35,615 nucleotides of DNA from Actinomycetes bacterium (GCA_030612085.1 JAUWOM010000002.1:1-35615), one strand, 5' to 3'. Counted from the first letter of the stretch, positions 68 through 16,959 are shown. Program-made: numbers and translations. Notes: generated by a model not told the origin, from the letters alone.

Positions 68-122
68 AGCTTTGGGCATAGTTTCTCGACTGAAAATGTC
101 TTCGAAACCATGCCACAAATCT
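68..122 (+). repeat. family-A palindromic element, copy 1 (tuf-rpsJ spacer)
   Basis: AGCTTTGGGCATAGTTTCTCGACTGAAAATGTCTTCGAAACCATGCCACAAATCT. Confidence 0.9.
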
Positions 123-132
123 AATAAAAAAA

Positions 133-160
133 GTAGGGCAAAGCTTTAGCCTTGCATATA
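133..160. repeat. family-B hairpin element, copy 1
   Basis: GTAGGGCAAAGCTTTAGCCTTGCATATA. The core GCAAAGCT/AGCCTTGC pairs at 7 of 8 positions. Confidence 0.75.
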
Positions 161-174
161 ATGAGTTCTATTAT

Positions 175-209
175 TGTAAATATAAGCAACCCTAAAGGGT
201 TGCCTTACA
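175..209. repeat. family-B-like hairpin element, copy 2
   Basis: TGTAAATATAAGCAACCCTAAAGGGTTGCCTTACA. The core GCAACCC/GGGTTGC is 7 bp, with an outer TGTAA/TTACA clamp. Confidence 0.7.
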
Positions 210-293
210 TATCAATATGTATTTAAAAATATTTTATAAAGTTTTTAATAGAAATAAAATTTAAGTGTTATATAAATTGATAGGGAGGTATTG

Positions 294-608
294 TTGGTAA
301 AAACTGGTCAGAAAATACGCATTTCATTAAAAGCGTTTGACCATCAGATTGTGGATCGATCGGCAAAAAAGATTGTAGAAACAGTTCTTGAGTCAGGAGC
401 GAGAGTAGCAGGACCTGTTCCACTTCCTACAAAAAGAAATCTTTTTTGTGTGATTAGATCACCACATATCGATAAGGATTCTCGAGAGCACTTTGAGATA
501 AAGACTCATAAGAGATTAATAGATGTATATAATCTGACACCAAAGACAGTTGATTCTCTTATGAGACTAAGTCTTCCGGCTGGTGTTTATATTGAAATAA
601 AGCTATAG
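294..608 (+). CDS. rpsJ: 30S ribosomal protein S10
   Basis: [12 protein letters not shown]...PLPTKR...[13 protein letters not shown] are S10 hallmarks. SD AGGGAGG is at 282-288. TTG occurs at both 291 and 294, and 294 has the better spacing. Confidence 0.93.
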
Positions 609-625
609 AATTATAGAATTGTTTT

Positions 626-639
626 AAGCTTTGGGTGTA
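626..639 (+). repeat. solo 5' half-site of the family-A element (degenerate remnant)
   Basis: AAGCTTTGGGTGTA against the A consensus AAGCTTTGGGCATA (12 of 14). No matching 3' arm lies nearby. Confidence 0.5.
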
Positions 640-743
640 TTTTTTTGTTAATATGACCTCTCAACATGTGGAGAATTTATTTCTCTCTCTATATGTGGGG
701 CTATAAAATCCAGTGTGAAGAGGAAAATTTAAAAGCTTTTAAA

Positions 744-796
744 AACTTTGGGCATAGTTTCTTGACTAAATGTCTTCGAAACCATGCCACAAAGCT
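744..796 (+). repeat. family-A palindromic element, copy 2 (rpsJ-rplC spacer)
   Basis: AACTTTGGGCATAGTTTCTTGACTAAATGTCTTCGAAACCATGCCACAAAGCT. Confidence 0.9.
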
Positions 797-860
797 ATAA
801 TAAAAATTGAATTTAAAGATGGGAATTTTAATTAATTGAATATTTAAGATGAGGTAAATT

Positions 861-1505
861 TTGATTAAAGCCATTATAGGAAAAAAAATAGGAATGACAA
901 GCATATATGATGAACAGGGGAACGTTGTTCCTGTAACAGCGGTTAAGGCTGGTCCTTGCACTATTACTCAAGTAAAGTCAGATAAAACAGATGGTTATAA
1001 TGCGATTCAGATAGGTTTTGGCGATATTAAATTAAGTAGAGTAAACAAACCTTATGAGCAACATTTTAAAAAGAAGAAATTAGAGCCAAAAAAACATTTA
1101 TTAGAAGTAAGAGTGGATGAACCCAAGAATTTTAAGGTGGGAGATGTCATTAAAGCTTCTGTATTTGAGAAGGGAGATATAGTTAAGGTAACAGGTAAAT
1201 CTAAAGGAAAAGGATTTACTGGAGGTATGAAGAGACATGGGTTTAGTGGTCAAGGAGCTTCTCATGGTTCACAATACCATCGCGCTATTGGTTCAACTGG
1301 TCAGAGAATCTCAAGAGTTTTTAAAGGTAAGAAGATGCCAGGTCGCCACGGATATAAAAATATAACAACATTGGGATTAGAAGTAGTAGAAGTAGATTCT
1401 GAATCAAACATAATACTTATAAAAGGATCTGTACCAGGATCGAAAGGAAGAATGGTACTTATACAAGACCATAGAAGGAAGGAGAAGGGCTTAAATGGAG
1501 CTTAA
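861..1505 (+). CDS. rplC: 50S ribosomal protein L3
   Basis: N-terminus MIKAIIGKKIGMTSIYDEQG and FKGKKMPGRHG match L3. TTG start follows GAGGT at 851-855. Confidence 0.95.
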   Translation: MIKAIIGKKIGMTSIYDEQGNVVPVTAVKAGPCTITQVKSDKTDGYNAIQIGFGDIKLSRVNKPYEQHFKKKKLEPKKHLLEVRVDEPKNFKVGDVIKASVFEKGDIVKVTGKSKGKGFTGGMKRHGFSGQGASHGSQYHRAIGSTGQRISRVFKGKKMPGRHGYKNITTLGLEVVEVDSESNIILIKGSVPGSKGRMVLIQDHRRKEKGLNGA

Positions 1506-2124
1506 AGCGAATGTTGTAAATATCAGTGGTGATAAAATATCGACCGTTACTTTAAACAAGAAAGTATTTTTTTCAGAGAGTGATGTAAATATTTTACATA
1601 GGGTTGTTAAAACCTATCTTGCTTCAAGGAGATCAGGAACTGCATCAACAAAAACCAGAGATGAGGTAAGAGGTGGTGGAAGAAAACCATGGCGCCAGAA
1701 AGGTACGGGAAGAGCTAGAGCTGGAAGTATTCGATCTCCAATATGGAGGGGTGGAGGAGTTACATTTGGACCAAAACCGAGGGATTACTCAATGAGGTTA
1801 CCTAAGAAGATTAGGTATGAAGCAAGAAAATTAGCTTTGTATATAAAAGCAAAGGATAAAGAGATATTAGTTGCTGAAGATTTTAATTTTAAAGAACCGA
1901 GTACCAAGAATGCTGCTAAATTTCTAAAATATTTTGGAGATGAGAAGAAAAACTTAATTATTCTGGAAAAGGATAAAGAAATAGTTGAAAAATCTTTTAG
2001 AAATATTCCAACTGTTAATGTAATAGGAGTGGATAGACTAAGTGTTTATAACATATTAAACGCTGAAAGACTAATATTTACGAAAAAATCATTGGAAGAA
2101 ACAGTGGAGGTATATGGAAGATGA
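1495..2124 (+). CDS. rplD: 50S ribosomal protein L4
   Basis: GGGRKPWRQKGTGRARAGSIRSPIWRGGGVTFGP is the L4 signature. The gene overlaps the rplC end by 11 nt. Confidence 0.95.
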   Translation: MELKANVVNISGDKISTVTLNKKVFFSESDVNILHRVVKTYLASRRSGTASTKTRDEVRGGGRKPWRQKGTGRARAGSIRSPIWRGGGVTFGPKPRDYSMRLPKKIRYEARKLALYIKAKDKEILVAEDFNFKEPSTKNAAKFLKYFGDEKKNLIILEKDKEIVEKSFRNIPTVNVIGVDRLSVYNILNAERLIFTKKSLEETVEVYGR

Positions 2125-2408
2125 AAGGATCAAGAGATGTGATAATTAAACCAGTCATATCTGAAAAAAGTTACTCATTAGTTGAGCAAAATAGATATAC
2201 ATTTATTGTGCATCCTAAATCAAAAAAGATTGAGATTAAGAAAGCAATTGAAGAAATTTTTAATGTTAAAGTTATTTCAGTTAATACCATTAAAATAGCT
2301 CCAAAACTCAGGAGGTTGGGAGCTTCAATGGGTTATAAGTCTGGATATAAGAAAGCAATTGTTACCTTAAAGCAAGGTGATAGTATACCAATATTTGAAA
2401 GTAAATAA
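2121..2408 (+). CDS. rplW: 50S ribosomal protein L23
   Basis: IIKPVISEKS...YTFIV...KKAIVTL matches L23. ATGA overlap with rplD. Confidence 0.93.
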   Translation: MKGSRDVIIKPVISEKSYSLVEQNRYTFIVHPKSKKIEIKKAIEEIFNVKVISVNTIKIAPKLRRLGASMGYKSGYKKAIVTLKQGDSIPIFESK

Positions 2409-2469
2409 AAATATTAAAAGCTTTAATTGAAGTGAATCTAATTAAGAAATAAATTAAATAACTGTTAAA

Positions 2470-2523
2470 AGCTTTGGGCATAGTTTCTTGACTAAAATGT
2501 CTTCGAAACCATGCCACAAAGCT
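2470..2523 (+). repeat. family-A palindromic element, copy 3 (rplW-rplB spacer)
   Basis: AGCTTTGGGCATAGTTTCTTGACTAAAATGTCTTCGAAACCATGCCACAAAGCT. Confidence 0.9.
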
Positions 2524-2560
2524 AATAATTAAAATATATTGTCATATAAAGGGAGTTAAT

Positions 2561-3385
2561 TTGCCAGTAAAAAAATATAAACCTACAACACCTGGTAGAA
2601 GATTTTTAGTAGGAATTGATTATTCAAAATTGACAAAAAAGAAACCCGAAAAAATGTTGACTAAGCCACTTAAGAAAAAAGCTGGTAGAAACGTTAGTGG
2701 TAAGATTACCGTTCGACACAAGGGTGGTGGACATAAAAGACAATATAGAGTTATAGATTTTAAAAGAAAAAAAGATGATATTATAGCAAGAGTTAATTCA
2801 ATTGAGTATGATCCAAACAGATCATGTAATATTGCTTTAATTACTTATAATGATGGAGAAAAGAATTATATATTAGCACCCAGAGGTATAAAGGTGGGAG
2901 ATTCTGTTATTTCTGGTGATAATGTGGATATTAAAATTGGAAATACTCTTCCATTAAGGAAGATTCCTACTGGAACATTTGTACATAATATTGAGATGCA
3001 AATTGGCAGGGGAGGTCAATTAGTAAGATCAGCTGGTTCAAGTGCTCAATTGATGGCCAAAGAGGGAGATTATGGAAATTTAAAGCTTCCATCTGGTGAA
3101 ATAAGACTTATTAACTTGAATTGTAGAGCAACAATTGGTCAAGTTGGTAATGTAGAACATGGTATTACGATAAAAGGAAAAGCCGGAAGAAGTAGATGGT
3201 TAGGAATTAGACCAACTACAAGAGGTACAGCAATGAATCCAGTGGATCACCCTCATGGTGGTGGTGAAGGAAGGGGAAAATCAGGAAGACCACCTTCATC
3301 CCCTACTGGAGTAAAAGCTATTGGGTATAAAACAAGAAAGAAGAGAAAACCATCAGATAAAATGATAATTAAGCGTAGGAAATAA
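2561..3385 (+). CDS. rplB: 50S ribosomal protein L2
   Basis: [23 protein letters not shown] and [13 protein letters not shown] match L2. TTG start follows GGGAG. Confidence 0.97.
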
Positions 3386-3407
3386 AAAAAATTAAGAGGG
3401 AGGTAAA

Positions 3408-3692
3408 TTGCCTAGATCTCTAAAAAAAGGTCCTTATATTGATGAAAAACTTTATAAGAAGATCTCTAAGTTAAACACTAATAATGAAAAGAAAATGATA
3501 AAGACTTGGGCTAGAAGTTGTACTATAATTCCTGAAATGGTTGGTCATACAATTGCTGTACATAATGGGAGAAAACATGTTCCAATTTTTATAACTGAGA
3601 ATATGGTTGGGCATAAATTGGGTGAATTTGCTCCTACTAGAACATTTAGACTACATGGTGGTCACACAGAAAGATCAACATCATTGAAGTAA
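3408..3692 (+). CDS. rpsS: 30S ribosomal protein S19
   Basis: [15 protein letters not shown] and [23 protein letters not shown] match S19. TTG start follows GGGAGG. Confidence 0.96.
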
Positions 3693-3719
3693 TAGGAAAA
3701 ACTATTATAGGAGAATAAA

Positions 3720-4061
3720 TTGGAAGTAAAGGCAGTTTTAAGATATGTAAGGATAAGTCCTCGAAAAGCTAGATTAGTTATAGATATGATAAGAGGAATG
3801 GATGTTTCTAAAGCAAAAGTAGTTTTAGGTTTTACTCCTAAAAAAGCAGCTAAGATGGTAAAAAAGGTGCTTTCTAGTGCTGTGGCAAATGCTATTGAGA
3901 ATCATGGTATGAAAGATGAAGATTTATATATATCCAAAATAAATGTTGACCAAGGTCCAACTTTAAAAAGGATGAAACCGAGAGCAAGGGGAAGAGCGGA
4001 TAGAATTAAAAAGAGGACAAGTCATATAACTATTTATATTTCTCAAAGAGAGGAGAGTTAA
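3720..4061 (+). CDS. rplV: 50S ribosomal protein L22
   Basis: RYVRISPRKARLVIDMIRG and PRARGRADRIKKRTSHI match L22. TTG start follows GGAGA. Confidence 0.95.
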   Translation: MEVKAVLRYVRISPRKARLVIDMIRGMDVSKAKVVLGFTPKKAAKMVKKVLSSAVANAIENHGMKDEDLYISKINVDQGPTLKRMKPRARGRADRIKKRTSHITIYISQREES

Positions 4062-4062
4062 T

Positions 4063-4722
4063 ATGGGACAAAAAGTAAATCCTGTCGGTTTCAGAACAGG
4101 AATTAATAGAGATTGGAAAACTCATTGGTTTGCGACTAAAGAGTATTCCAAGTTTCTTTGTGAGGATATAAAGATAAGAGAATATTTAAGGGACCAATTA
4201 CCAAATGCTGCTGTTTCAGGAATAGAGATTGAAAGAACAGCAGGGATAATGACAATGAATGTTTGTACAGCACGTCCAGGTATAGTTATAGGAAGAAAAG
4301 GATCAAATATAAATATTTTAAAAAAAGAAATAGAGAAGATGACAGATCACCAGGTTATTGTAAATATTGTTGAAGTTGTAAAACCTGAATTAGATGCGGT
4401 TTTAGTTGCTGAGAATGTAGCTCAACAGATAGAGGGAAGAACTGGCTATAGAAGAGCGATGAAAAAAGCAATATTTATAACAATGAAAACTGGAGCAAAA
4501 GGAATAAAGATTTCATGTTCAGGAAGACTTGGAGGGGCTGAGATGGCAAGAACAGTGTGGTTTAAGGAGGGAAGAATACCTCTTCATACTCTAAAAGCAG
4601 ATATTGATTATGGACAAAAAGACGCAATTACAAAATTTGGAGTTATTGGGGTAAAAGTGTGGATAAACAGAGGAGAGTTTATTAGTAAGGAGGAGCAGTT
4701 TAAGAGCTCTCATGATAAATAA
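4063..4722 (+). CDS. rpsC: 30S ribosomal protein S3
   Basis: MGQKVNPVGFR and the KH-type GRKGSNI match S3, as does the conserved C-terminal domain. Confidence 0.96.
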   Translation: MGQKVNPVGFRTGINRDWKTHWFATKEYSKFLCEDIKIREYLRDQLPNAAVSGIEIERTAGIMTMNVCTARPGIVIGRKGSNINILKKEIEKMTDHQVIVNIVEVVKPELDAVLVAENVAQQIEGRTGYRRAMKKAIFITMKTGAKGIKISCSGRLGGAEMARTVWFKEGRIPLHTLKADIDYGQKDAITKFGVIGVKVWINRGEFISKEEQFKSSHDK

Positions 4723-4826
4723 ACTAAGTCAATTAAAAAGTCATAAAAATATTAAATCATAAGATTTATACCAATTTAAATTTAAAGAATTGTTTTATAA
4801 GTAAGAAAAAATTTTAAGGAGAAGAA

Positions 4827-5249
4827 ATGTTACTTCCCAAAAGGGTAAAACATAGAAAAGAATTTAGAGGAAGATTGAAAGGTAAGTCAATAAGAGGATC
4901 AAAATTGTCTTTTGGTCAGTATGGGCTTCAAGCACTAGAACCATCCTGGATAACAAATAGACAAATAGAAGCTGCAAGAATAGCAATTACACGATGTATA
5001 AAAAGGGGAGGTAAAATCTGGATAAATATATTTCCTCATAAACCAGTTACTAAAAAACCCGCAGAAACCAGAATGGGAAGTGGAAAAGGTGCGCCTGATG
5101 GATGGGTAGCGGTTGTTAAACCAGGTCGTATTATGTTTGAAATTTCGGGTGTATCTGAGGAATTAGCAAAAGATGCAATGAGAAGAGCTTCTCATAAACT
5201 TCCTATAAAATGTAAATTTGTTACATTTAGAGAAGGAGGAGGCGAGTAA
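4827..5249 (+). CDS. rplP: 50S ribosomal protein L16
   Basis: [19 protein letters not shown] and [26 protein letters not shown] match L16. Confidence 0.96.
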
Positions 5250-5250
5250 T

Positions 5251-5457
5251 TTGAAAGCAACTCAAATCAGAGAATTGACTTTTAATCAGTTAGATAAGAA
5301 ATTAGCTAAGGCTAAACAAGATCTTTTTAATCTTAGATTTCAATTATCAATCAGTAAACTTAAAAACACAGCAAAAATAAAAGAAATAAAAAGAGAAATT
5401 GCGAGGATAATGACTGTGAAATACGAGAAGGAGAGAGAGGTAATTAATGAGAAGTAG
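5251..5457 (+). CDS. rpmC: 50S ribosomal protein L29
   Basis: A TTG at 5251, just after the rplP stop, gives [10 protein letters not shown]...DLFNLRFQ, a typical L29 N-terminus. The ORF-track start at 5218 lies inside rplP and is unlikely. Confidence 0.9.
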
Positions 5458-5698
5458 AAGAAAAGTCAAATCAGGCAAGGTTATAAGTGATAAAATGGAT
5501 AAAACTGTAGTTGTTGAAGTAATGACAACTTCTCATCACCCTGTTTATAAAAAGACCATGATAAAAGCAAAGAAATATAAGGTTCATGATGAAAAGGGTG
5601 AATGCAAAGTAGGTGATCTTGTATCTATTATGGAGACTAAACCAATTAGCAAGACAAAGAGGTGGAGAGTCTTTAAAGTAGTTGAGCAAAGTAAGTGA
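5447..5698 (+). CDS. rpsQ: 30S ribosomal protein S17
   Basis: [16 protein letters not shown]...HPVYKK...KYKVHDE...PISKTKRW matches S17. Overlaps the rpmC end. Confidence 0.94.
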
Positions 5699-5708
5699 GG
5701 TTTTTAAA

Positions 5709-6077
5709 ATGATACAATCATTTAGTAGATTAAAAGTAGCAGATAATACTGGAGCAAAAGTAATAATGTGTATTAGAGTATTGGGTGGAACAAGAAGGAG
5801 GTATGCGCGTGTTGGTGATGTAATAGTAGCTACTGTAAAATCTGCATCACCAGATGGAGTTGTTAAAAAAAGTGAAATAGTTAAAGCAGTTGTAGTGCGA
5901 ACTAAAAAAGGTTATAGAAGAAATGATGGAACATATATAAAATTCGATGAAAATGCTGCCGTTATAATAGATAACCAAAATAACCCCAGGGGAACAAGAA
6001 TATTTGGTCCTGTAGCAAGGGAATTAAGAGATAAAGAATATATGAAAATAGTATCTCTATCACCAGAGGTTTTATAG
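5709..6077 (+). CDS. rplN: 50S ribosomal protein L14
   Basis: The ATG at 5709 gives [17 protein letters not shown], the canonical L14 N-terminus. The ORF-track start at 5682 adds 9 non-conserved residues. Confidence 0.95.
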
Positions 6078-6086
6078 GAGGAAAAA

Positions 6087-6422
6087 TTGGTAAAATTAAA
6101 GATAAAAAAGGGAGATACAGTAGTTATCATAAAAGGTAAAGATTCAAGTAAATCATTTAAAAAAAAGACTGGTAAAGTTCTAAGAATTGAACCAGAAAAA
6201 GAAAGAGTTTATGTTAAAGGGAAAAATATTATAAAAAGACACACACGAAAAAAGAGTGAGCAGGAACCGGGTGGAGTAATTGAGAAAGAGGGACCAATTT
6301 ATATAAGTAATGTAATGCTTGTTTGCCCTTCTTGTGGAAAGCCAACTAGAGTGAAAATGCAGATTTTAAAAAATAATGAGAAAGTTAGAGTTTGTAAGAG
6401 ATGCGGGGAACAAATTCCTTAA
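6087..6422 (+). CDS. rplX: 50S ribosomal protein L24 (KOW domain; Cys4-containing C-terminal part)
   Basis: KIKKGDTVVIIKGKD is the KOW motif. TTG start follows GGAGG. CPSC...CKRC lies in the C-terminal third. Confidence 0.93.
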   Translation: MVKLKIKKGDTVVIIKGKDSSKSFKKKTGKVLRIEPEKERVYVKGKNIIKRHTRKKSEQEPGGVIEKEGPIYISNVMLVCPSCGKPTRVKMQILKNNEKVRVCKRCGEQIP

Positions 6423-6461
6423 AGTATTTCTTTAATATTCATTAGGAAGTAGGAGAAATTA

Positions 6462-7010
6462 ATGTACAAACCAAGATTAAAAGAAAAATTTGAAAAAGAA
6501 ATAATACCCAATATGGTGAAGCAGTTCTCATATAAGAATAAGATGCAAGTTCCTAAACTTGAAAAAATAATTGTTAATATGGGTATAGGTTCTGCAATGC
6601 AAAATCCTAATGAGTTAGAAGGTGCTATTAACAATTTAAAAGCTATAACAGGTCAGATGCCAATAGTTACAAAAGCTAAGAAATCTATTGCAGGATTTAA
6701 ACTAAGAGCTGGTATGAAGATAGGTCTTAAAGTTACATTAAGAGGAAATAGAATGTATGAGTTTTTAGATAGATTCTTATCTGTCGCTTTACCAAGAACT
6801 CGAGATTTTAGGGGAATTTCTCCAAAATCAATGGATAAAAAAGGAAATTTAACAGTGGGAGTTACTGAACAAATTGTGTTTTCAGAAATCGACAGTGATA
6901 AGATAGACCGTACACGAGGAATGAATGTAACTATAGTAACCTCATCAAATGGAAATGAAGAAGGTTTTTCTCTACTAAAATATTTTGGAGTACCTTTTAG
7001 AGAAAAATAA
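6462..7010 (+). CDS. rplE: 50S ribosomal protein L5
   Basis: [20 protein letters not shown] and PRTRDFRG match L5. Confidence 0.95.
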
Positions 7011-7024
7011 CAATATTAATTTTA

Positions 7025-7085
7025 TTTGTCATCCCTTCTCCTTCGTTGCACTCGAGGGTCAGGGGAAGAGTCTGAATGAAACAAA
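7025..7085. repeat. family-C MITE-like element, copy 1 (rplE-rpsN spacer)
   Basis: TTTGTCATCC...CCTTCGTTGCACTCGAGGGTCAGG...GAATGAAACAAA shares its termini and the CCTTCGTTxCACTCGAGGGTCA core with 32734-32799. Confidence 0.75.
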
Positions 7086-7119
7086 ATAAAGTGAAGAATA
7101 TCAATATCAGGAGGTCTTA

Positions 7120-7305
7120 TTGGCTAAAAAATCTTTAATTATAAAAGCAAAAAGGAAACAAAAATATAAAGTGAGACAGTATAATCGATGCAACCGATGT
7201 GGAAGGTCAAGAGGATATTATAGAAAGTTTGGTTTATGTCGAATTTGTCTTAGGGAATTAGCCCATAAAGGACAAATTCCAGGATTAAAAAAAGCTAGTT
7301 GGTAG
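7120..7305 (+). CDS. rpsN: 30S ribosomal protein S14, short zinc-binding type Z (61 aa)
   Basis: [16 protein letters not shown]...[20 protein letters not shown]...PGLKKASW matches S14 type Z. TTG start follows AGGAGG. Confidence 0.95.
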
Positions 7306-7320
7306 GTTAAGGGGGAATAA

Positions 7321-7719
7321 ATGAGTGTATCAGATACTATTGGAGATATGTTAACTAACATAAGAAATGCTAATTCTGCAAATCATTTGGTAACGGAAGT
7401 ACCCTCCTCAAAAATGATATGTGAAATGATCAAAATTCTTTTAGAAGAGGGTTATATAAAAGATTATAAAATTGAGAGGAATCCAATACAGGATAGGATA
7501 AAGATTTATTTAAAATATGGTCCGAACAAAGAAAAGATAATTACAGGTATAAGACGTATTAGTAAACCTGGACTTAGAGTATATGCAAGGAAAGATGAAA
7601 TACCAAGGGTTTTAGGCGGTTTGGGAATTTCAATTATATCAACTTCTAATGGTATTTTAACTGGAAGAAAGGCAAGAAAATTAGGAGTTAGTGGAGAAGT
7701 AATCTGTTATGTTTGGTAG
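7321..7719 (+). CDS. rpsH: 30S ribosomal protein S8
   Basis: [13 protein letters not shown] and the C-terminal GEVICYVW match S8. Confidence 0.95.
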
Positions 7720-7743
7720 TATATAAATTTAAAAATTACTATA

Positions 7744-7796
7744 AGATTTGGGCAAAGTTTCTTGACTAAATGTCTTCGAAACCATGCCACGAATCT
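7744..7796 (+). repeat. family-A palindromic element, copy 4 (rpsH-rplF spacer)
   Basis: AGATTTGGGCAAAGTTTCTTGACTAAATGTCTTCGAAACCATGCCACGAATCT. Confidence 0.9.
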
Positions 7797-7827
7797 ATTG
7801 ATAAAATCGAAATAAAGGAGAAGCAAA

Positions 7828-8401: not shown

Positions 8402-8455
8402 AGATTTGGGCAAAGTTTCTTGACTAAAATGTCTTCGAAACTATGCCACAAATCT
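8402..8455 (+). repeat. family-A palindromic element, copy 5 (rplF-rplR spacer)
   Basis: AGATTTGGGCAAAGTTTCTTGACTAAAATGTCTTCGAAACTATGCCACAAATCT. Confidence 0.9.
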
Positions 8456-8542: not shown

Positions 8543-8899
8543 TTGGTAAAGTCAAAAAAAGTTTTAGATAGAGAAAAAAGACATAGAAGGGTTAGAGTAA
8601 AGGTTTTTGGTATCAAGAAAAGACCAAGATTAAGTGTTTTTAGAAGCAACAAGGATATCTATGCCCAGTTAATAGATGACACAAGAGGTTATACTTTATG
8701 TAGTTACTCTTCCCTGAAACTTAAAGAAAAAGAAGGTAAAAATAAGGTTGAAATTGCTTACTTGGTAGGCAATGAGATTGGAAAAATAGCTAAGAGAAAG
8801 CGTATCAAAGAAATTGTATTTGATAGGGGTGGTTACAAATTTCATGGTAGAGTAAAAGCCTTAGCTGATGGTGCGAGAGAAGCTGGACTATCTTTTTAG
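8543..8899 (+). CDS. rplR: 50S ribosomal protein L18
   Basis: [20 protein letters not shown] and [24 protein letters not shown] match L18. TTG start. Confidence 0.95.
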
Positions 8900-8917
8900 A
8901 ATTATAGGAGGTAAATA

Positions 8918-9493: not shown

Positions 9494-9539
9494 AATATCA
9501 TTCTTGTATATAAATATAAATTTTTAAAGGAAAAAGGTA

Positions 9540-9995
9540 ATGAGAATTCATAATTTAAAACCATCTCCTAAATCAACTAAAAAAAGAAAGAGAGTTGGAA
9601 GAGGGGAAGGCTCTGGTCACGGAAAGACCTCAGGAAGAGGTCATAAGGGACAAAAAGCAAGATCCGGATCAAGTATTAAACCTGGGTTTGAAGGTGGGCA
9701 GATGCCACTGGCTAGAAGGATTCCGAAACTGAGAGGATATGGAAATAGAAGTCTTCATAGAATAACTTATCAAATAGTAAATGTTGAGTCTTTAAATTTA
9801 TTTAAGAATAGGCAAACAATTACAAATAAGTTGCTTTATGAAGAAGGACTCATAAAGAAATTAGATAGACCAATAAAGATATTAGGAAATGGAAATTTGG
9901 ATAAGAAATTAACAGTTAAAGCTCAAGCTTTTTCGAAAAGTGCGAGAGAAAAGATAGAAAATAAAGAAGGAAAAGTTGAGGTACTAAATGTTTAG
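9540..9995 (+). CDS. rplO: 50S ribosomal protein L15
   Basis: GRGEGSGHGKTSGRGHKGQKARSG...FEGGQMPL matches L15. Confidence 0.94.
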   Translation: MRIHNLKPSPKSTKKRKRVGRGEGSGHGKTSGRGHKGQKARSGSSIKPGFEGGQMPLARRIPKLRGYGNRSLHRITYQIVNVESLNLFKNRQTITNKLLYEEGLIKKLDRPIKILGNGNLDKKLTVKAQAFSKSAREKIENKEGKVEVLNV

Positions 9996-11256
9996 AGCGC
10001 TACGTGATGCTTTCAGGATACCTGATTTAAGAAAAAAGCTGCTTTTTACAATGGCAATTTTGGCTATTTATAGATTTGGAGCAAACATCTCTGTTCCAGG
10101 TGTTAGATTAGAAGGGATTGAGAAAGTTTTTGAGGGGGGAATTTTTGAGATGCTTGACCTTTTCTCAGGTGGTGCTTTATCAAATTTTGCAGTCTTTTCT
10201 TTAGGTATAATGCCATATATTACTGCGACAATTATTTTACAGTTGCTTCAGATAATTTTTCCAAAATTAGAAAAAATTGCTAAAGAGGGAGAGACAGGTC
10301 GTAGAAAGATAAATCAGATAGCAAGATATATAACAATAGGATTAGCTATATTTCAATCCACAGCTATGTTCTTTTATTTTAAAGGACAAGGTTTTATTGT
10401 AGGTGAAATTTGGCCTATGTTATTTGTAGTGGTAATCACTTTAACAACAGGAACTGCTTTAATAATGTGGATAGGTGAGTTAATAACTCAAAAGGGAATT
10501 GGGAATGGAATGAGCCTTATCATTTTTGCAAATATTATTTCAAGGTTTCCAGGCTACATAATTAATTCAGTTAATCAATGGTGGCCAAATGATATTTATA
10601 TCATTGCTATTGTGCTACTGATTGCAATAGCTGTGATAATATTTATTATTGTAATTCAACAGGGTGAGAGAAAAATACCCATACAATATGCAAAACAGAT
10701 AAGGGGAAGAAGAGTTTATGGTGGAAGGGGAACATATATTCCCATAAAGGTTAATCAGTCTGGAGTTATTCCGGTAATATTTGCTTCTTCACTATTGGCT
10801 TTTCCAGCAACTATAGCACAATTTATACAAGTTCCCTGGGTTCAAAAACTCGCAATTATAATTGGTCCTCCAGCTAAAAGAGGAGAAATAAAACCATGGT
10901 ATCTTACTTTGTATGCCTTATTAATTTTGGGATTTACATATTTTTATGCTGCAATAGCATTTAATCCTGAGGATATGGCAGACAATTTTAGGAAATATGG
11001 AGGTTTTATTCCCGGAATAAGACCTGGTAAATCAACTGTAAGTTACTTAAAGAATATATTAAACAGGGTAAATCTACCTGGAGCAATATTTTTAGCCATA
11101 GTTGCACTATTACCAACTGCTCTCTGGGCGTTCTTTAATGCACCATTTCAATTTGGAGGAACTTCTATTTTGATTGCAGTTGGTGTTGCTTTAGAGTTTA
11201 TGAAACAGCTTGAAGCTCAACTGATTATGAGAAACTACGAGGGCTTTTTAAAATAA
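9988..11256 (+). CDS. secY: preprotein translocase subunit SecY
   Basis: 422-aa polytopic membrane protein with GIMPYITATIILQLL and GELITQKGIGNGMSLIIF. It sits at the canonical position after rplO. Confidence 0.96.
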   Translation: MFRALRDAFRIPDLRKKLLFTMAILAIYRFGANISVPGVRLEGIEKVFEGGIFEMLDLFSGGALSNFAVFSLGIMPYITATIILQLLQIIFPKLEKIAKEGETGRRKINQIARYITIGLAIFQSTAMFFYFKGQGFIVGEIWPMLFVVVITLTTGTALIMWIGELITQKGIGNGMSLIIFANIISRFPGYIINSVNQWWPNDIYIIAIVLLIAIAVIIFIIVIQQGERKIPIQYAKQIRGRRVYGGRGTYIPIKVNQSGVIPVIFASSLLAFPATIAQFIQVPWVQKLAIIIGPPAKRGEIKPWYLTLYALLILGFTYFYAAIAFNPEDMADNFRKYGGFIPGIRPGKSTVSYLKNILNRVNLPGAIFLAIVALLPTALWAFFNAPFQFGGTSILIAVGVALEFMKQLEAQLIMRNYEGFLK

Positions 11257-11276
11257 ATTTTATTTTTATAGATAAT

Positions 11277-11933
11277 ATGAATCTAATAATTTTTGGTCCA
11301 CCTGGGTCAGGTAAGGGAACACAGGCTAAGAAAATTAGCAAATATTTCTATATACCACATATCTCAACTGGAGATATGTTAAGAGAAGCGATAAAAGAAA
11401 AGACGTGTTTGGGAAAAAAAGCTCAAAAGTTTATGTCAAATGGAGATTTAGTTCCCGATGAATTGGTGGTAAAGATATTAAAAGAGAGGATTAAAAAAGA
11501 GGACTGCAAAACAGGTTTTATTTTGGATGGTTTTCCGAGAAATCTTGAGCAGGTTGAACTTCTGTCCAATATATTAAAAGAGATAGAAAAACCGATAGAT
11601 TTAGTCATTAATATGATCGTACCTGAGAAGGAATTGACAAAACGTCTATTGGGAAGAAGAGTTTGTAGTAGTTGTAACAAAAATTTTAATATTTATCAGC
11701 AAAGTTTAAAAACATTTAAATGTCCTGTTTGTAATGGAGAGTTAATAATAAGAGATGATGATAATATGCAAACTGTAAGAAATAGATTTAAAGTTTATAA
11801 GGAACAGACAGAGCTATCAATACAACCTTATTATGAAAAGGATTTAGTTATTGAAGTGGATGGAGAGGATACTGTTGAAAATATTTTTGAGAATATAAAA
11901 ATAATTTTGGAGGATATATTTGATAAAGATTAA
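11277..11933 (+). CDS. adk: adenylate kinase (Cys4 zinc lid)
   Basis: P-loop GPPGSGKGTQ and lid CSSC...CPVC. Canonical position after secY. Confidence 0.95.
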   Translation: MNLIIFGPPGSGKGTQAKKISKYFYIPHISTGDMLREAIKEKTCLGKKAQKFMSNGDLVPDELVVKILKERIKKEDCKTGFILDGFPRNLEQVELLSNILKEIEKPIDLVINMIVPEKELTKRLLGRRVCSSCNKNFNIYQQSLKTFKCPVCNGELIIRDDDNMQTVRNRFKVYKEQTELSIQPYYEKDLVIEVDGEDTVENIFENIKIILEDIFDKD

Positions 11934-12684
11934 ATCTGCCGTTGAAATTGATAAAATTAGAAAATCTTGTGAGATAGTTGCAGAAACGCTTAAGCTGCTC
12001 AAGAGGCATATACAACCAGGCGTAACTACAATAGAGCTGGATAAAATTGCTTATGATTTCATTATAAAAAAAGGAGCTATACCAGCGTTTCTTGGATATA
12101 GAGGATATCCAGCAACGATTTGTGTAGCTATTAATGAGATTGTTGTTCATGGAATTCCAGATAATGGGAAACTAAAAGAGGGTGATATTATTGGAGTCGA
12201 TATGGGTGTGAAGTTTAATGGGTATTATGGAGATGCAGCTATAACAGTTGGTGTTGGTGAGATATCCAAAAAGGCAAAAGAAATAATGGATATTACAGAG
12301 AGAGCACTTTATAAAGGAATAAAAAAATGTTTTGAGGGGAATCATCTGTCAGATATATCCCATGCAATTCAAACTAATGCTGAAGAGAACGGATTTTCTG
12401 TTGTAAGAAGATTTGTGGGGCATGGAATTGGAACTGAACTTCATGAGGAACCTTCAATTTTAAATTATGGACCTCCCAACATGGGACCAGTTTTAAAAAA
12501 TGGTATGGTTTTTGCGATAGAACCGATGGTTAATCAAGGTACTCATGAGGTTGAGGTTTTAGATGACAAATGGACTGTTGTAACCAAAGATAGAAAACTA
12601 TCAGCTCATTTTGAGCATACAGTTGCTATTACCGAAAATGGACCATTAATATTAACACAAATAGAAATATTGAAAAATAAATAA
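11920..12684 (+). CDS. map: type I methionine aminopeptidase
   Basis: The metal-ligand context VHGIP, DMG, GHGIG, EPM and EHT matches MetAP. TTG start overlaps the adk end. Confidence 0.94.
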
Positions 12685-12695
12685 GGAGAACTATT

Positions 12696-12917
12696 ATAGC
12701 AAAGAAAGAAGAAAAAATTGAGGTAGAAGGAAAAGTACTGGAGGCTTTACCAAATGCTATGTTCAGGGTAGAGTTGGACAGTGGTCATAAGGTATTAGCT
12801 CATATATCTGGTAAGATAAGGATGCACTATATTCGTATTCTTCCAGGTGATAGAGTTATAGTTGAACTTTCACCCTATGATCTTACTAAGGGAAGAATAA
12901 TTTATAGATTCAGGTAA
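12696..12917 (+). CDS. infA: translation initiation factor IF-1 (non-canonical start: ATA at 12696 or ATT at 12693)
   Basis: Absent from the ORF track. Frame reads (I)(I)[72 protein letters not shown] then TAA, a full-length IF-1 S1 fold. In-frame TAA at 12678-12680. No ATG, GTG or TTG lies before the conserved N-terminus. SD AAGGAG at 12683-12688. Confidence 0.88.
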
Positions 12918-12954
12918 AAAATATTAAAAATTGATAAATATAAGTGTGATTTTT

Positions 12955-13068
12955 ATGAAAGTAAAAACATCTGTTAAAAAAATTTGTAAAAAATGTAAAA
13001 TAATTAAAAGAAAAGGAAAAGTAAGAGTTCTTTGTGATAACCCTCGTCATAAACAAAGACAGGGTTAA
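12955..13068 (+). CDS. rpmJ: 50S ribosomal protein L36 (zinc-binding form)
   Basis: Below the ORF-track size cutoff. [37 protein letters not shown] is a canonical 37-aa L36. Confidence 0.93.
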
Positions 13069-13099
13069 ATAAAAAATTTAGATAGGAGGTTTATTAATC

Positions 13100-13474
13100 T
13101 TGGCAAGAATAGCAGGTATAGACTTACAAAAAGATAAACAGATAGATATTGCATTAACTAAAATACACGGGATTGGTAGGTCATTGGCAAAAGCGATACT
13201 TAAAGAAACTAAAATTGACTCTGCACATAAAGTAAAAGATTTAACTGAGAAGGAGATTTCTGTTATAGCAAACTATATTGAAGAGAATATTAAAGTAGAG
13301 GGTAGTTTAAAAAGAGAGGTTTCGCAAAATATAAGGAGATTAATTGAGGTAGGGTGCTATAGAGGAATAAGGCATAGGAGAGGCCTTCCTGTTAGAGGGC
13401 AAAGAACTCACACTAATGCCAGAACAAGAAAAGGTCCAAGAAAGACCGTTGCAGTAAAACGTAAAAAAATTTAA
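13100..13474 (+). CDS. rpsM: 30S ribosomal protein S13
   Basis: MARIAGIDL and [26 protein letters not shown] match S13. TTG start follows AGGAGG. Confidence 0.96.
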
Positions 13475-13489
13475 TAAGGAGAAATCTTT

Positions 13490-13888
13490 ATGGTTATAAA
13501 AAGAGGGAAAAAGGGAAAAGCTCGGAGAAAGGCAAAGAAGAACATACCGCATGGTGCTGTTCACATTCAATCAACATTTAATAATACAATTATCACCTTT
13601 ACTGATTTAAAAGGAAATACAATTGCGTGGGCATCTTCTGGAACAGCAGGATTTAAAGGTTCACGAAAGGGTACACCTTTTGCAGCACAGTTAGCAACTG
13701 AATTAGCTACAAAGAAAGCCCAGGAACATGGAGTAAAACAGGTTGATGTTTATATTAAAGGAGCAGGTTCTGGAAGAGAAACTGCTGTTAGATCACTTCA
13801 AGCATTAGGTCTTCAGGTTTTAAATATAAAGGATGTAACTCCAATTCCGCATAATGGTTGTAGAGCTAAGAAGCAAAGGAGAGTTTAG
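13490..13888 (+). CDS. rpsK: 30S ribosomal protein S11
   Basis: [16 protein letters not shown] and [11 protein letters not shown] match S11. Confidence 0.96.
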
Positions 13889-13897
13889 GAGGATAAT

Positions 13898-14530
13898 ATG
13901 GCTAGATATATTAATGCAGTTTGTAAACTATGTAGAAGGGAAGGCGAAAAGTTATTTATAAAAGGGTCTAAATGTAATACAGAGAAATGTGCTGTTGAGA
14001 AAAAACCTTATCCACCAGGAGAGAGAGGAAGAGGAGGAGCAAGAACAAGGGAGACTGACTATCTAATTCAATTAAGAGAAAAGCAGAAGGTAAAGAGGAT
14101 ATATGGGATTTTAGAGAAGCAGTTTAAGAACTATTTTAAAAGAGCCTTAAAAATGAAGGGTATAACAGGTACAAATCTATTAGTTTTTTTAGAAACTCGT
14201 TTGGATAATATAGTCTATTTATTAGGATTCGCTGAATCTCGACCTCAAGCCCGACAGCTTGTAAATCATGGACATATTTTAGTTAATGAAAAGAAGATGA
14301 AGGTACCTTCATACCAGGTCAAAGCAGGACAAGAAATAGAGATTGTTAAAAAATCCAAGAAAATACAGGCAGTGGCTCAATCAATAGCTCAATCATCTGA
14401 AACAGAGATTCCAAGATGGCTTCAGGTTGATCATAAAGAACTTAAAGGTAAGGTTATTTCTCTACCTGAAAGGGAGGACATAGACCAAAGCATTAAGGAA
14501 CAAATAATTGTTGAGCTATATTCAAGATAA
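13898..14530 (+). CDS. rpsD: 30S ribosomal protein S4 (N-terminal Cys4 cluster)
   Basis: MARYINAVCKLCRREGEKLFIKGSKCNTEKC plus a C-terminal S4 RNA-binding domain. Confidence 0.95.
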   Translation: MARYINAVCKLCRREGEKLFIKGSKCNTEKCAVEKKPYPPGERGRGGARTRETDYLIQLREKQKVKRIYGILEKQFKNYFKRALKMKGITGTNLLVFLETRLDNIVYLLGFAESRPQARQLVNHGHILVNEKKMKVPSYQVKAGQEIEIVKKSKKIQAVAQSIAQSSETEIPRWLQVDHKELKGKVISLPEREDIDQSIKEQIIVELYSR

Positions 14531-14569
14531 CTTAACATAAAATTACATATATATTGGAGGTAGTATCAA

Positions 14570-15499
14570 TTGTTAGAAATGCAAAAACCAAAAATAGAAA
14601 TTATAAAAAATACACCAACTGAAGGTGTTTTTGTTATTGAACCCTTAGAGAGAGGATATGGTTATACTTTGGGAAATACTTTAAGGAGGATTTTAATTTC
14701 CTCTATTCCAGGTGCTGCAGCAACATCTATAAAAATAGATGATGTATATCATGAGTTCTCAACAATTCCTGGAGTAAGGGAGGATACAACTGAACTAATT
14801 TTAAATCTAAAAAAATTGGTACTTAAGTCTTCGTCTGAAGAACCAATTACCATAAGAATAGAAAAAAAGGGAAAATGTGATATTTATGCTAAAAACATAA
14901 TAGCTCCAAGTGAAGTAGAAATAGTGAATAAAGACTTATATATAGCAAATTTAAATAAAGATGGAAAACTGAAAATGGAAATAAATGTGGAGAGAGGTAG
15001 GGGGTATGTAGCAGCTGAAGAGCATAAAAAAGGTAAGGAGATAATTGGTTTGATTAATATAGATTCAATATTTACTCCAGTAATTAATGTAAGTTATGAT
15101 GTTGATTCAACCAGAGTAGGTCATAAAACCAATTATGATAAATTAACTCTAAAAATTAAGACAAATGGAGCTGTAACTCCTGATTTTGCTTTAAGTCAAA
15201 CTGCAAAGATACTCTCTGATCATTTGAAGGTTCTTATAGATGTCACGGAAATTGCTTTATTTGAGAGTTTTATAAAGGAGGAGGAGAAACCAAAGGAAAA
15301 AGAGGAGATATCAATAGAGGAACTGAATCTGTCAGTGAGATCATCTAATTGTTTAAAGAAAGAAAGTATTGTTTATATCTCAAATCTTTGTGATTATACA
15401 GAACAGCAGCTTTTAAGTATCCGTAATCTGGGTATGAAATCATTAAATGAAATCAAGAAGAAATTAGAGGAAAGGAAATTAACACTTAAGAAGGTCTAA
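14570..15499 (+). CDS. rpoA: DNA-directed RNA polymerase subunit alpha
   Basis: GYGYTLGNTLRRILISSIPGAA in the N-terminal domain and LSVRSSNCLKK...NLGMKSLNEIK in the C-terminal domain. TTG is 9 nt after GGAGG. An ATG at 14579 is an alternative start. Confidence 0.94.
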   Translation: MLEMQKPKIEIIKNTPTEGVFVIEPLERGYGYTLGNTLRRILISSIPGAAATSIKIDDVYHEFSTIPGVREDTTELILNLKKLVLKSSSEEPITIRIEKKGKCDIYAKNIIAPSEVEIVNKDLYIANLNKDGKLKMEINVERGRGYVAAEEHKKGKEIIGLINIDSIFTPVINVSYDVDSTRVGHKTNYDKLTLKIKTNGAVTPDFALSQTAKILSDHLKVLIDVTEIALFESFIKEEEKPKEKEEISIEELNLSVRSSNCLKKESIVYISNLCDYTEQQLLSIRNLGMKSLNEIKKKLEERKLTLKKV

Positions 15500-15503
15500 A
15501 AAT

Positions 15504-15857
15504 ATGGTTAAACCAAAGAAAGGAAAAAGAATAGGTGGTAGCGCTAGTCATCAAAAAGCAATAATGTCGAATTTAGCAATAGCGCTATTAGAACATAATA
15601 GGATTAAAACTACTCATGCAAAAGCAAAAAGGTTAAAAGCGGTCATTGATAAATTGATAGGTTTGGGTAAAAAGGATGACCTAAGTTCCAAACGTAAGGC
15701 ATTATCAATGCTTAGACACAATAGAAAAGCAGTGAAAAAACTTTTTGATGAGGTAGCTCCTCGTTATCATCAAAAAGACTCAGGTTTTTCAAGGATAATT
15801 AAAATTGGAGAAAGACCTGGTGACGCATCTTTAATGGTATTTATAGAATTAACTTAA
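15504..15857 (+). CDS. rplQ: 50S ribosomal protein L17
   Basis: LLEHNRIKTTHAKAKRLK and GFSRIIKIGERPGD match L17. Confidence 0.94.
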   Translation: MVKPKKGKRIGGSASHQKAIMSNLAIALLEHNRIKTTHAKAKRLKAVIDKLIGLGKKDDLSSKRKALSMLRHNRKAVKKLFDEVAPRYHQKDSGFSRIIKIGERPGDASLMVFIELT

Positions 15858-15900
15858 AAATAAAATAGTTAGCGCAATCTCATAATAAATAACTTTTGGA

Positions 15901-16001
15901 AGATTTGGACATAGTTTCTTGACTAATTATCCTCTCCCCTGGTGGGAGAGGGAAAGGGAGAGGGGGAATTTAAAATCTCTTCAAAACCATGCCACAAATC
16001 T
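15901..16001 (+). repeat. family-A element, copy 6 (rplQ-truA spacer), split by a nested family-D insertion
   Basis: The 5' arm AGATTTGGACATAGTTTCTTGACTAA and the 3' arm AAAATCTCTTCAAAACCATGCCACAAATCT are separated by about 46 nt of foreign sequence. Confidence 0.85.
15931..15966 (+). repeat. family-D GC-rich hairpin element nested in A copy 6
   Basis: CCTCTCCCCTGGTGGGAGAGGGAAAGGGAGAGGGGG. CCTCTCCC pairs with GGGAGAGG (8 bp), and a second GGGAGAGGG arm follows. Confidence 0.85.
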
Positions 16002-16023
16002 CTGAATAAAGAAAAGCTTTAAG

Positions 16024-16059
16024 TGTCATTGCGAGGGACAAAGTCCCGAAGCAATCTCA
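16024..16059. repeat. family-E short hairpin element (GTCATTGCGAG...GAAGCAATC type)
   Basis: TGTCATTGCGAGGGACAAAGTCCCGAAGCAATCTCA. ATTGC/GCAAT and GGGAC/GTCCC form nested stems. There is one copy in the window. Confidence 0.6.
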
Positions 16060-16110
16060 TTAAAAATAGATTATAAAAATTTAATAATATTTGATACTTG
16101 TGGAGAGTAG

Positions 16111-16845
16111 TTGTTACACAATATAAAGATAATTTTGGAATACGATGGGACTAGATATAAAGGATTTCAGATTCAGAAAGATTTAGATACAATACAGGGA
16201 AGATTGGAGGATTGCCTAAATACTATATTAAGAGAAAAGATAAAAATAAAATATTCAAGTAGAACAGATACAGGAGTTCATGCTAAGGAACAAGTCATTA
16301 ACTTTATAACAGAGAACAAGATAGATCATGTTAAGCTTCAAAGGTCTATGAATGCAATATTACCGAGTGATGTAGTTGTAAAGCACATAGAGGAGGGTGA
16401 AACTGATTTTGACTCAAGAAGATATGCTAAAAGTAGGGAATATGAATATTATATTTTAAATAGAAAATATCCATCTGCATTTGATAAAAATTTTATGTTG
16501 ATTGACAAAGAACTTGATATTGAATCAATGATTTTAGCTTCTAAATATCTTATTGGAAAAAAAGATTTTAAAGCATTTTGCAAAGATTCATCAGAAGTTA
16601 AAAATACAGTTCGCAATGTAAATGAGGTTGAAATTAGAAAAGAGGGAGATTTCATAGTAATAAAGATAATAGCAAATTCCTTTATTCATCAAATGGTAAG
16701 AATAATTGTAGGAACATTGATAGAAGTAGGACTCTCTAAAAGAGAGTCTTATGAAATTTTACAAATTTTAGAAAAAAAACAGAGAATATTTGCAGGAAAG
16801 GTAGCGGAAGCAAAAGGTCTTTATTTAACCAAAATTAATTATTAA
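16111..16845 (+). CDS. truA: tRNA pseudouridine(38-40) synthase TruA
   Basis: LEYDGTRYKGFQIQ and SRTDTGVHA (catalytic Asp). TTG start. Sits between rplQ and rplM. Confidence 0.9.
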   Translation: MLHNIKIILEYDGTRYKGFQIQKDLDTIQGRLEDCLNTILREKIKIKYSSRTDTGVHAKEQVINFITENKIDHVKLQRSMNAILPSDVVVKHIEEGETDFDSRRYAKSREYEYYILNRKYPSAFDKNFMLIDKELDIESMILASKYLIGKKDFKAFCKDSSEVKNTVRNVNEVEIRKEGDFIVIKIIANSFIHQMVRIIVGTLIEVGLSKRESYEILQILEKKQRIFAGKVAEAKGLYLTKINY

Positions 16846-16871
16846 AAAAATAAAATTAAATAACCTTTGAA

Positions 16872-16959
16872 AGATTTGGGCATAGTTTCTGTCTTCCTCT
16901 CCCTTGATGGGAGAGGGTAGGGAGAGGGTAAAATGTCTTCGAAACCATGCCACAAATCT
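16872..16959 (+). repeat. family-A element, copy 7 (truA-rplM spacer), split by a nested family-D insertion
   Basis: The 5' arm AGATTTGGGCATAGTTTC and the 3' arm TAAAATGTCTTCGAAACCATGCCACAAATCT flank an insertion that replaces the TTGAC of the apical region. Confidence 0.85.
16896..16928 (+). repeat. family-D GC-rich hairpin element nested in A copy 7
   Basis: CCTCTCCCTTGATGGGAGAGGGTAGGGAGAGGG has the same architecture as 15931-15966. Confidence 0.85.

Follow-up and report, generated by a model that had tools for sequence, protein, structure and literature searches.

The stretch of DNA considered here (the window, 35,615 nt) is the region JAUWOM010000002.1:1-35615 of a genome labelled Actinomycetes bacterium (GCA_030612085.1). 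Its genes all lie on one strand and include the ribosomal-protein supercluster, and seven of the spacers between them hold a copy of an imperfect palindrome of 53-55 nt, the subject of this report. An earlier reading of the sequence alone (the original prediction) had proposed seven same-orientation copies, and all seven are confirmed on the plus strand at the same places, by searches with the two arms and, for the five short copies, by the scores of a covariance model. The GC content of the window is 31%, and its closest genome records are assigned to Actinomycetota, usually a high-GC phylum.

Copy 1 (68-122, +, 55 nt) stands in the tuf/rpsJ spacer, has a mixed lower stem (AGC...TCT) and scores 80.1 bits. 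It is followed by copy 2 (744-796, +, 53 nt, 76.4 bits) between rpsJ and rplC, copy 3 (2470-2523, +, 54 nt, 85.7 bits) between rplW and rplB with the lower stem AGCTTT/AAAGCT, copy 4 (7744-7796, +, 53 nt, 74.4 bits) between rpsH and rplF, and copy 5 (8402-8455, +, 54 nt, 81.8 bits) between rplF and rplR, in which an A-U pair replaces an A.C mismatch of the stem. Copy 6 (15901-16001, +, 101 nt, rplQ/truA spacer) and copy 7 (16872-16959, +, 88 nt, truA/rplM spacer) are the same element with G-rich insertions of 46 and 39 nt, respectively, nested in the apical loop; the arms lie at 15901-15925 and 15972-16001 in copy 6 and at 16872-16890 and 16930-16959 in copy 7. For copies 1, 4, 5 and 7 the element starts 23-26 nt after the stop codon upstream. 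Pfam identifies S10, L3, L23, L2, S8, L6, L18, L17, TruA and L13 in the flanking genes, in agreement with the names first given to them, and tuf is assigned from a C-terminal fragment together with contig L095 (L-numbers are labels of copy-bearing loci or contigs outside the window). L095 encodes an identical L4 protein and reaches beyond the upstream end of the window, where an eighth sense copy is found in the fusA/tuf spacer (L095 7225-7277), just upstream of the window's start. Contigs with an identical L4 from four metagenome samples carry the same copies at every site they cover. The haplotype occurs in samples ENA ERZ27251113 and JGI 3300028822, 3300009150 and 3300024263.

The right arm (19 nt, at most one mismatch) has seven matches in the window against 0.00 expected from 100 dinucleotide shuffles, and the left arm (20 nt) has six against 0.00 expected from shuffled sequence. 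Since shuffles predict no arm matches, a chance origin of the copies can be dismissed. With a covariance model of 63 distinct copies, the five short window copies score 74-86 bits on the plus strand and their palindromic echo on the minus strand only 25-35 bits; the same model finds no further copy in the whole 35.6-kb window.

Hairpin structure and nested modules

The element folds into a stem of 21 pairs, with a predicted energy of -24 to -26 kcal/mol (z = -6 to -8) for the sense RNA and -24 to -31 kcal/mol for the antisense RNA. Individual sense folds are -25.9 kcal/mol (z = -8.1) for copy 3 and -23.9 kcal/mol for copy 5, and copy 7 with its insertion reaches -44 kcal/mol. For the 63 distinct short copies, pairing holds in 92.9% of cells, and six of the 21 pairs show compensatory two-sided changes (73 cells). 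None of 500 shuffles reaches the observed covariation score and the signal vanishes when partner columns are slid, so the covariation check proposed at the outset shows that the stem is kept by compensatory change. The consensus put forward in the original prediction is likewise correct in its details, including the paired change from AGCTTT/AAAGCT to AGATTT/AAATCT, the bulged A, the A.C mismatch and the GAC/GTC cap.

Three subfamilies with coordinated arm changes can be distinguished, namely type A (GGGCATAGTTTC / GAAACCATGCCAC), type B (GGGTATACTTTC / GAAAGTATACCAC) and type C (GGGTATATTTTC / GAAAACATACCAC). The cap also switches from GAC/GTC to GGC/GCC, and the A-U version of pair 7-49 is seen in additional copies. 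An apical sequence of 17 nt and the bulged A are constant across the subfamilies. The AG...CT base marks the exact limit of pairing; a stem running on into the conserved AT-rich flanks (5' consensus ..AAATAAc.tTTgaA, followed by the AG of the stem, and 3' consensus CTAWTAAT) was rejected, as there is no covariation past AG...CT. At the covarying pairs, G.U and A.C intermediates are about equally common, and because they are balanced the folded strand cannot be told. The suggestion that the A.C mismatch argues mildly for an antisense or DNA-level role does not survive this count.

Parallel changes in two half-sites could also come from symmetric recognition by a protein, and a palindromic duplex-DNA operator for a dimeric regulator of the flanking genes was weighed with this in mind. 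Loop insertions of 35-85 nt leave both arms intact, which favours a hairpin over a duplex operator, since insertions of that length between half-sites would destroy the spacing of a dimer while keeping the hairpin. In addition, the bulge and the mismatch make the halves unequal, the copies lie within operons past stop codons and not at promoters, and they are dispensable in close relatives. An operator is thus close to excluded.

The nested insertions are modules in their own right. The one in copy 6 (15926-15971, +) consists of a C-tract (CCTCTCCC) and the G-quadruplex motif GGGAGAGGGAAAGGGAGAGGGGG, and the one in copy 7 (16891-16929, +) of CCTCTCCC followed by GGGAGAGGGTAGGGAGAGGG. Modules of a C-tract and a canonical G-quadruplex (e.g. 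GGGAGAGGGAAAGGGAGAGGG) also occur at L007 7640-7693 and at L010 1622-1736 and 5209-5346. There are 15 G-quadruplex motifs in 787 kb of 31%-GC DNA, eight of them inside loops of the element, and each of the 15 has a complementary C-rich tract within 30 nt upstream. These complementary tracts suggest that the motifs could adopt either a hairpin or a quadruplex. Strains that are 99% identical differ in these modules.

Several other identities for the hairpin were considered. A small open reading frame (ORF) from the loop ATG (MSSKPCHKS...) was rejected, as its residues shift with the compensatory changes in the arms (PC, VY, TY) and its stop codon has no fixed place. An integron attC site, prompted by the extrahelical base and the variable loop, was set aside by inspection only, the RYYYAAC/GTTRRRY cores being absent and the context one of housekeeping genes. 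No copy is followed by a U-tract and a terminator scan calls none on either strand, which bears out the view that they are not intrinsic terminators. A sigma-70 scan (-35/-10, 16-18 nt spacing) gives only one weak 9-of-12 match on a copy, copy 3, and fewer hits in the window in total than the shuffle mean; a promoter made of the loop TTGACT and the TAWTAAT of the 3' flank was rejected by manual check for its wrong spacing.

Distribution, turnover and mosaic organisation

In a search of 185,579 species-representative genomes with a tolerant two-arm pattern, the element was found in only three metagenome-assembled genomes (MAGs), with between one and five contigs matching in each. Of these MAGs, one bears the label Candidatus Humimicrobiia, a class of Actinomycetota, and two are labelled Actinomycetes bacterium; their GC content is about 29-33%. 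A similar pattern finds the element on 82 metagenome contigs. Together, the MAGs, the metagenome contigs and the window hold 123 copies by two-arm search and about 135 by covariance model, at about 85 distinct sites, and all but one copy lie outside ORFs. The element is restricted to the Candidatus Humimicrobiia lineage. The original prediction did not recognise it as a named repeat or RNA family, and in Rfam 15, ribosomal-protein leaders included, the window has no match to the element at the gathering threshold and three copy-rich loci have none at E<=1. Plasmid and phage collections likewise give no match, and literature mentioning Humimicrobiia holds nothing on repeats.

Outside the ribosomal-protein genes, the copies lie between housekeeping pairs such as nusG/rplK, groEL/pcrA, ispG/class-II aaRS and ispH/der, and further contexts include tmk, glycosyltransferases and a group of M50 protease, lipid kinase and DeoC genes. 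Ten of the 81 non-window sites fall within the S10-spc-alpha-truA-rplM cluster, and eight copies stand in about 27 kb of the ribosomal-protein supercluster. By our estimate the supercluster has a roughly eight-fold excess of sites, with the caveat that orthologous sites across lineages are not independent.

Comparison of relatives shows that copies come, go and are replaced at orthologous spacers within the time over which strains diverge. Across the S10 operon, L007 shares 96% identity with the window; it keeps copies 1 and 4, the latter (7621-7722) with a loop insertion that window copy 4 lacks, and is without copies 2 and 3. The site of copy 1 is also filled in L093 and L095, and copy 2 is present in L093-L096. 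L001, 92-95% identical to the window, misses the whole copy-6 module and has copy 7 between identical flanks with no loop insertion; L024 has the copy-6 module, again without the insertion. Between L024 and L001 the flanks are 99-100% identical, yet two complete modules differ, and L010 and L008, at 99% identity, differ by an 84-nt loop insertion. Replacement is seen in the rplF/rplR spacer, which holds type A in the window and type C after a B motif in L024 with the same 3' flank, and in the rplW/rplB spacer, where the type-A copy of the window has a type-B counterpart in the more distant L066. Counted over every pair of orthologous sites, the ratio of filled to empty sites is 34:4 at a flank identity of at least 98%, 22:10 at 95-98%, 18:17 at 90-95% and 22:19 below 90%; these counts overestimate retention, as contigs were picked because they hold a copy.

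Two possible remnants lie beside intact copies in the window. The first (627-657, +; AGCTTTGGGTGTATTTTTTTG...) may be the decayed 5' half of an older copy, read from the alignment with L007, and stands just upstream of copy 2; it is common to L007, which has no intact copy 2. The second (2419-2439, +; AGCTTT..GAAGTGAATCT), upstream of copy 3, may be an internally deleted copy. Both are calls of low confidence and neither is detected by the covariance model. Decayed remnants beside intact copies would suggest that the same spacers have been colonised repeatedly.

When filled and empty sites are aligned, the 54-nt hairpin is in no case inserted cleanly by itself. What differs is a block of 130-175 nt that includes other recurring motifs, among them the 5' flank AAATTAAATAACyTTTGAA, a linear motif M (AATATTAAATTCTCATTAAAG) and a companion hairpin B (GTCATTGCGAGGGACAAAGTCCCGAAGCAATCTC), together with extra conserved flank of 10-60 nt. 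Direct repeats of 10 or 15 nt border some of these blocks, and some blocks take the place of a few bases of the empty allele. No target-site duplication of fixed length is seen in these alignments: the 10- and 15-nt repeats sit away from the ends of the hairpin, and the junctions are AT-rich and composite. The composite blocks take forms such as M-A, A-B and B-A-B. The hairpin and its companion motif also form direct tandem arrays, one of four units with a period of about 146 nt (L050 6692-7186) and one of two units 88 nt apart (L037 3783-3924), with all units in direct orientation. The organisation is a mosaic of small repeats resembling the bacterial interspersed mosaic elements (BIMEs), not a cut-and-paste transposon.

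These junctions bear on the idea of a classical miniature inverted-repeat transposable element (MITE), that is, an internally deleted insertion sequence moved by a DDE transposase with the arms as terminal inverted repeats. While the arms are inverted repeats that reach the ends of the element and a few junctions have AT-rich direct repeats, the flanking repeats vary (none, 10 nt or 15 nt) and lie off the hairpin ends, and the inserted blocks contain the extra conserved flank. Cut-and-paste MITEs are also not expected to show a strong orientation bias such as that described below, and no transposase gene is seen adjoining any of the copies with annotated neighbours. A MITE in this strict sense is therefore very improbable.

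The companion motifs have their own distribution. In the window, hairpin B stands at 16025-16058 (+), 23 nt downstream of copy 6 and in the same composite module; the loci (e.g. L024, L064, L081) hold 29 copies of B, which often flank the main element, as does a variant B' (GTCATTCTGAAGGAGCGATAGCGACTGAAGAATCT). Motif M (about AATATTAAATTCTCATTAAAG) is found either 8-12 nt upstream of the hairpin or about 25 nt downstream, in some cases on both sides, as at L027 3540-3720, L072 10370-10500, L033 4000-4100 and L095 7290-7320, and could be a promoter-like or target sequence. A third small hairpin, R, GTAGGGCAA(A/G)GCTTTAGCCTTGC, occurs at window 133-155 and 30457-30479 and in 21 copies in the loci; it starts with GTAG followed by a palindrome, a layout nearer to the classical repetitive extragenic palindrome (REP) than that of the main element. 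Its copy at 133-155 gives a terminator-like call on the minus strand.

Lineage restriction, strain-level turnover and mosaic organisation point to an interspersed repeat. The element is probably a lineage-specific, non-coding hairpin repeat of the REP/BIME/MITE kind that settles in the spacers between genes of Candidatus Humimicrobiia. It is not a conserved regulator of ribosomal-protein operons. Of the two hypotheses in the original prediction, the part of the first that proposed a REP- or MITE-like hairpin repeat is upheld by presence and absence between genomes of 96-99% identity and by the restriction to one lineage.

Orientation and possible routes of spread

Between co-directional genes, 87 copies are in sense orientation and six in antisense (65:5 at unique sites), and the extra copies found by the model only are also sense. 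The typical distance after the upstream stop codon is about 10-30 nt. Since nearly all copies are sense between co-directional genes, they would be co-transcribed with their neighbours. The gene direction itself is strongly uniform: 89% of adjacent gene pairs run in the same direction, the majority strand of each contig carries 92% of coding bases, and no copies fall within minority-strand gene blocks that could separate the polarity of transcription from that of replication. With gene direction 89-92% uniform within contigs, the sense bias is not assignable to transcription over replication. Neither polarity rule is absolute, because antisense and sense copies co-occur in contigs of one gene direction. 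The antisense copies were also considered as decayed relics; this was rejected, as the scores of the four detected by the model, 67-78 bits, lie in the normal range. The companion motifs share the bias, with sense to antisense ratios of 17:1 for B, 9:1 for B', 13:0 for M and 11:3 for R.

The main rival to an interspersed repeat is that the hairpin is primarily a selected cis-acting RNA, for example an intercistronic processing site, a 3'-end stabiliser or a translational uncoupler, with repeat-like spread as a secondary matter. We regard this as possible though rather unlikely. Its support comes from orientation and place, with 65 of 70 unique co-directional sites in sense, a usual position 10-30 nt past the upstream stop and an enrichment of sites in highly expressed ribosomal operons, and from a stem that covaries while the 17 apical nt are constant across subfamilies. 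A stem of about 21 bp would also suit RNase III-type recognition. Close relatives, however, are without copies at orthologous ribosomal-protein spacers and have nothing in their place, and one spacer may hold different subfamilies or a decayed and a fresh copy. Furthermore, unrelated small motifs are sense-biased as well, so that the bias is not peculiar to this RNA; the balanced G.U and A.C intermediates do not mark the sense RNA as the folded strand; and there is no Rfam relative. The second hypothesis of the original prediction, a functional transcribed hairpin, thus agrees with the outcome of the orientation test but not with the frequent absence of the element from orthologous spacers in close relatives.

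Turning to replication, a REP-type element could be moved as single-stranded DNA (ssDNA) by a Y1/HUH transposase, either a REP-associated tyrosine transposase (RAYT) or an IS200/IS605 TnpA, at the replication fork, in which case the bias would reflect replication polarity. An element oriented by replication would look about 90% sense, near the observed 93%, and the imperfect palindrome has strand-specific asymmetries in its invariant bulged A and A.C mismatch. The absence of a fixed target duplication also fits, and IS608-type elements are documented to target the lagging strand (PMC5027513, PMC6006769). On the other hand, a search for HUH/Y motifs found no RAYT- or HUH-like ORF in the 787 kb around about 120 copies, and a phmmer search of the same DNA with E. 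coli RayT found no homologue at E<=10; such an enzyme may be encoded elsewhere in the genome. REPINs are defined by inverted doublets (PMC3337134), whereas the copies stand singly or in direct tandem, and their palindrome has no 5' GTAG. Antisense copies in contigs that share one gene direction with sense copies indicate that orientation does not strictly follow the fork, and the boundaries of the inserted blocks are variable and composite. We consider this route unlikely, and the part of the first hypothesis that invoked HUH or RAYT mobilisation finds no support in the DNA around the copies, which shows no RAYT-like ORF, inverted doublets or 5' GTAG.

A more speculative proposal, to which we give little probability, is that the insertion mechanism is itself oriented by transcription, which could account for the sense bias and for the concentration of copies in very highly transcribed operons. 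The hairpin and the nested G-quadruplex and C-tract modules would enter, or template-switch into, the exposed single-stranded non-template strand, and the resulting stem-loops, some of them hairpin-versus-quadruplex switches, might tune cistron stoichiometry in ribosomal-protein mRNAs. If true, such transcription-oriented spread would be a mode not described for bacterial small repeats.

For the preferred reading of a colonising interspersed repeat, spread that leaves no fixed target duplication might proceed by ssDNA- or hairpin-dependent transposition in trans. Alternatively, the hairpin may provoke template switching or recombination via short flanking homologies. Removal could occur by hairpin-stimulated slippage between flanking direct repeats. 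Placed in sense between co-directional genes, the repeat would appear in the mRNA as a stable 21-bp stem-loop of about -24 to -26 kcal/mol, usually some 10-30 nt past a stop codon. By analogy with REP in enterobacterial operons, its role there would most likely be at most that of an incidental 3'-protective or processing hairpin, and selection may have given the RNA a secondary, exapted function in processing or 3' protection.

Several points weigh against a colonising repeat. About half of the orthologous sites are still filled below 90% flank identity, a figure inflated by ascertainment. Some empty sites may be deletions and not pre-insertion states, and the empty rplQ/truA site seems to have arisen by deletion between GCAATCTCAT repeats. 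With no mobilising enzyme found around the copies and no transposase among their annotated neighbours, mobility is read only from comparisons of presence and absence. Lastly, the 65:5 sense bias, the invariant apical sequence and the roughly eight-fold ribosomal excess go beyond what a neutral selfish repeat would predict, and they leave room for selection on a role at the RNA level.

Relation to known repeats and significance

By the preferred reading, the element belongs to a familiar class of small interspersed bacterial repeats, and the family itself is new. It is most readily compared with the REP and BIME sequences of Enterobacteria, which are also short imperfect palindromes in intergenic transcribed regions, present in many dispersed copies, arranged in mosaics and tandem clusters with other motifs, able to form stable mRNA hairpins past stop codons and variable between strains. 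A conserved GTAG-type tetranucleotide 5' of the palindrome is a feature of REP sequences. The Humimicrobiia element differs in having no GTAG, an apparently low copy number, longer AT-rich arms (21 pairs) and no RAYT found, and while the REPs of a BIME alternate in orientation, its units are all direct and sense.

Other short repeats resemble the element in part. The Correia/NEMIS repeats of Neisseria and the ERIC/IRU repeats of Enterobacteria are small inverted repeats that are co-transcribed with their neighbours, form long RNA hairpins that are possible processing substrates and are polymorphic between strains. They measure 100-150 bp, occur in both orientations, carry promoter or IHF sites and, in the case of Correia, a TA duplication, whereas the Humimicrobiia element is 54 nt long and about 93% sense, with no fixed duplication and no promoter consensus. 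The mycobacterial interspersed repetitive units (MIRUs) are actinobacterial repeats that lie in operon spacers and are oriented with transcription; they are direct tandem units of 40-100 bp and not hairpins, and they carry short ORFs that overlap the neighbouring stop and start codons. The Humimicrobiia repeat, in contrast, is palindromic, and each compensatory change alters the residues of the short ORF that it could encode.

Among repeats tied to a known enzyme, the REPIN-RAYT systems of Pseudomonas (PMC3116915, PMC3337134) share hairpin-forming non-autonomous repeats, subfamilies within a genome and the lack of a classical target duplication. A REPIN consists of two REPs in inverted orientation (PMC3337134) and is linked to a RAYT that is present in single copy with REPINs on its flanks, but neither doublet nor RAYT is seen around the Humimicrobiia copies; the few pairs of copies on opposite strands are separated by 1-3 kb that hold genes of housekeeping size. 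Palindrome-associated elements derived from IS200/IS605 (PMC5027513, PMC6006769) are similar in their asymmetric imperfect palindromes, lack of target duplication and strand bias. They have distinct left and right subterminal hairpins with guide and cleavage sequences, whereas the Humimicrobiia element has only one hairpin and neither TnpA nor TnpB in its vicinity.

Elsewhere in the window, a glmS ribozyme (Rfam RF00234, 62 bits) lies at 19536-19778 (+), with ORFs nearby at 17974-19344, 19893-21224 and 21278-23113. A phosphoglucosamine-mutase-like gene stands upstream of it, and the first gene after it is that of a glutamine synthetase, followed by glmS (GATase and SIS domains), so that the ribozyme heads a glnA-glmS pair and not glmS directly. 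The ribozyme is also found in L024 (12189-12433).

The element does not reveal a new kind of system. Ribosomal-protein superoperons count among the most densely packed and best conserved parts of bacterial genomes, and at least eight of their spacers are here enlarged by a repeat that varies even between nearly identical strains. Its three covarying subfamilies, its nested modules and a sense bias of 13:1 make the family a clean case for weighing replication, transcription and selection as sources of strand bias. It is also a natural experiment in how much secondary structure polycistronic ribosomal-protein mRNAs tolerate, and the repeat may be of use as a strain marker for an uncultured and unusually AT-rich class of Actinomycetota.

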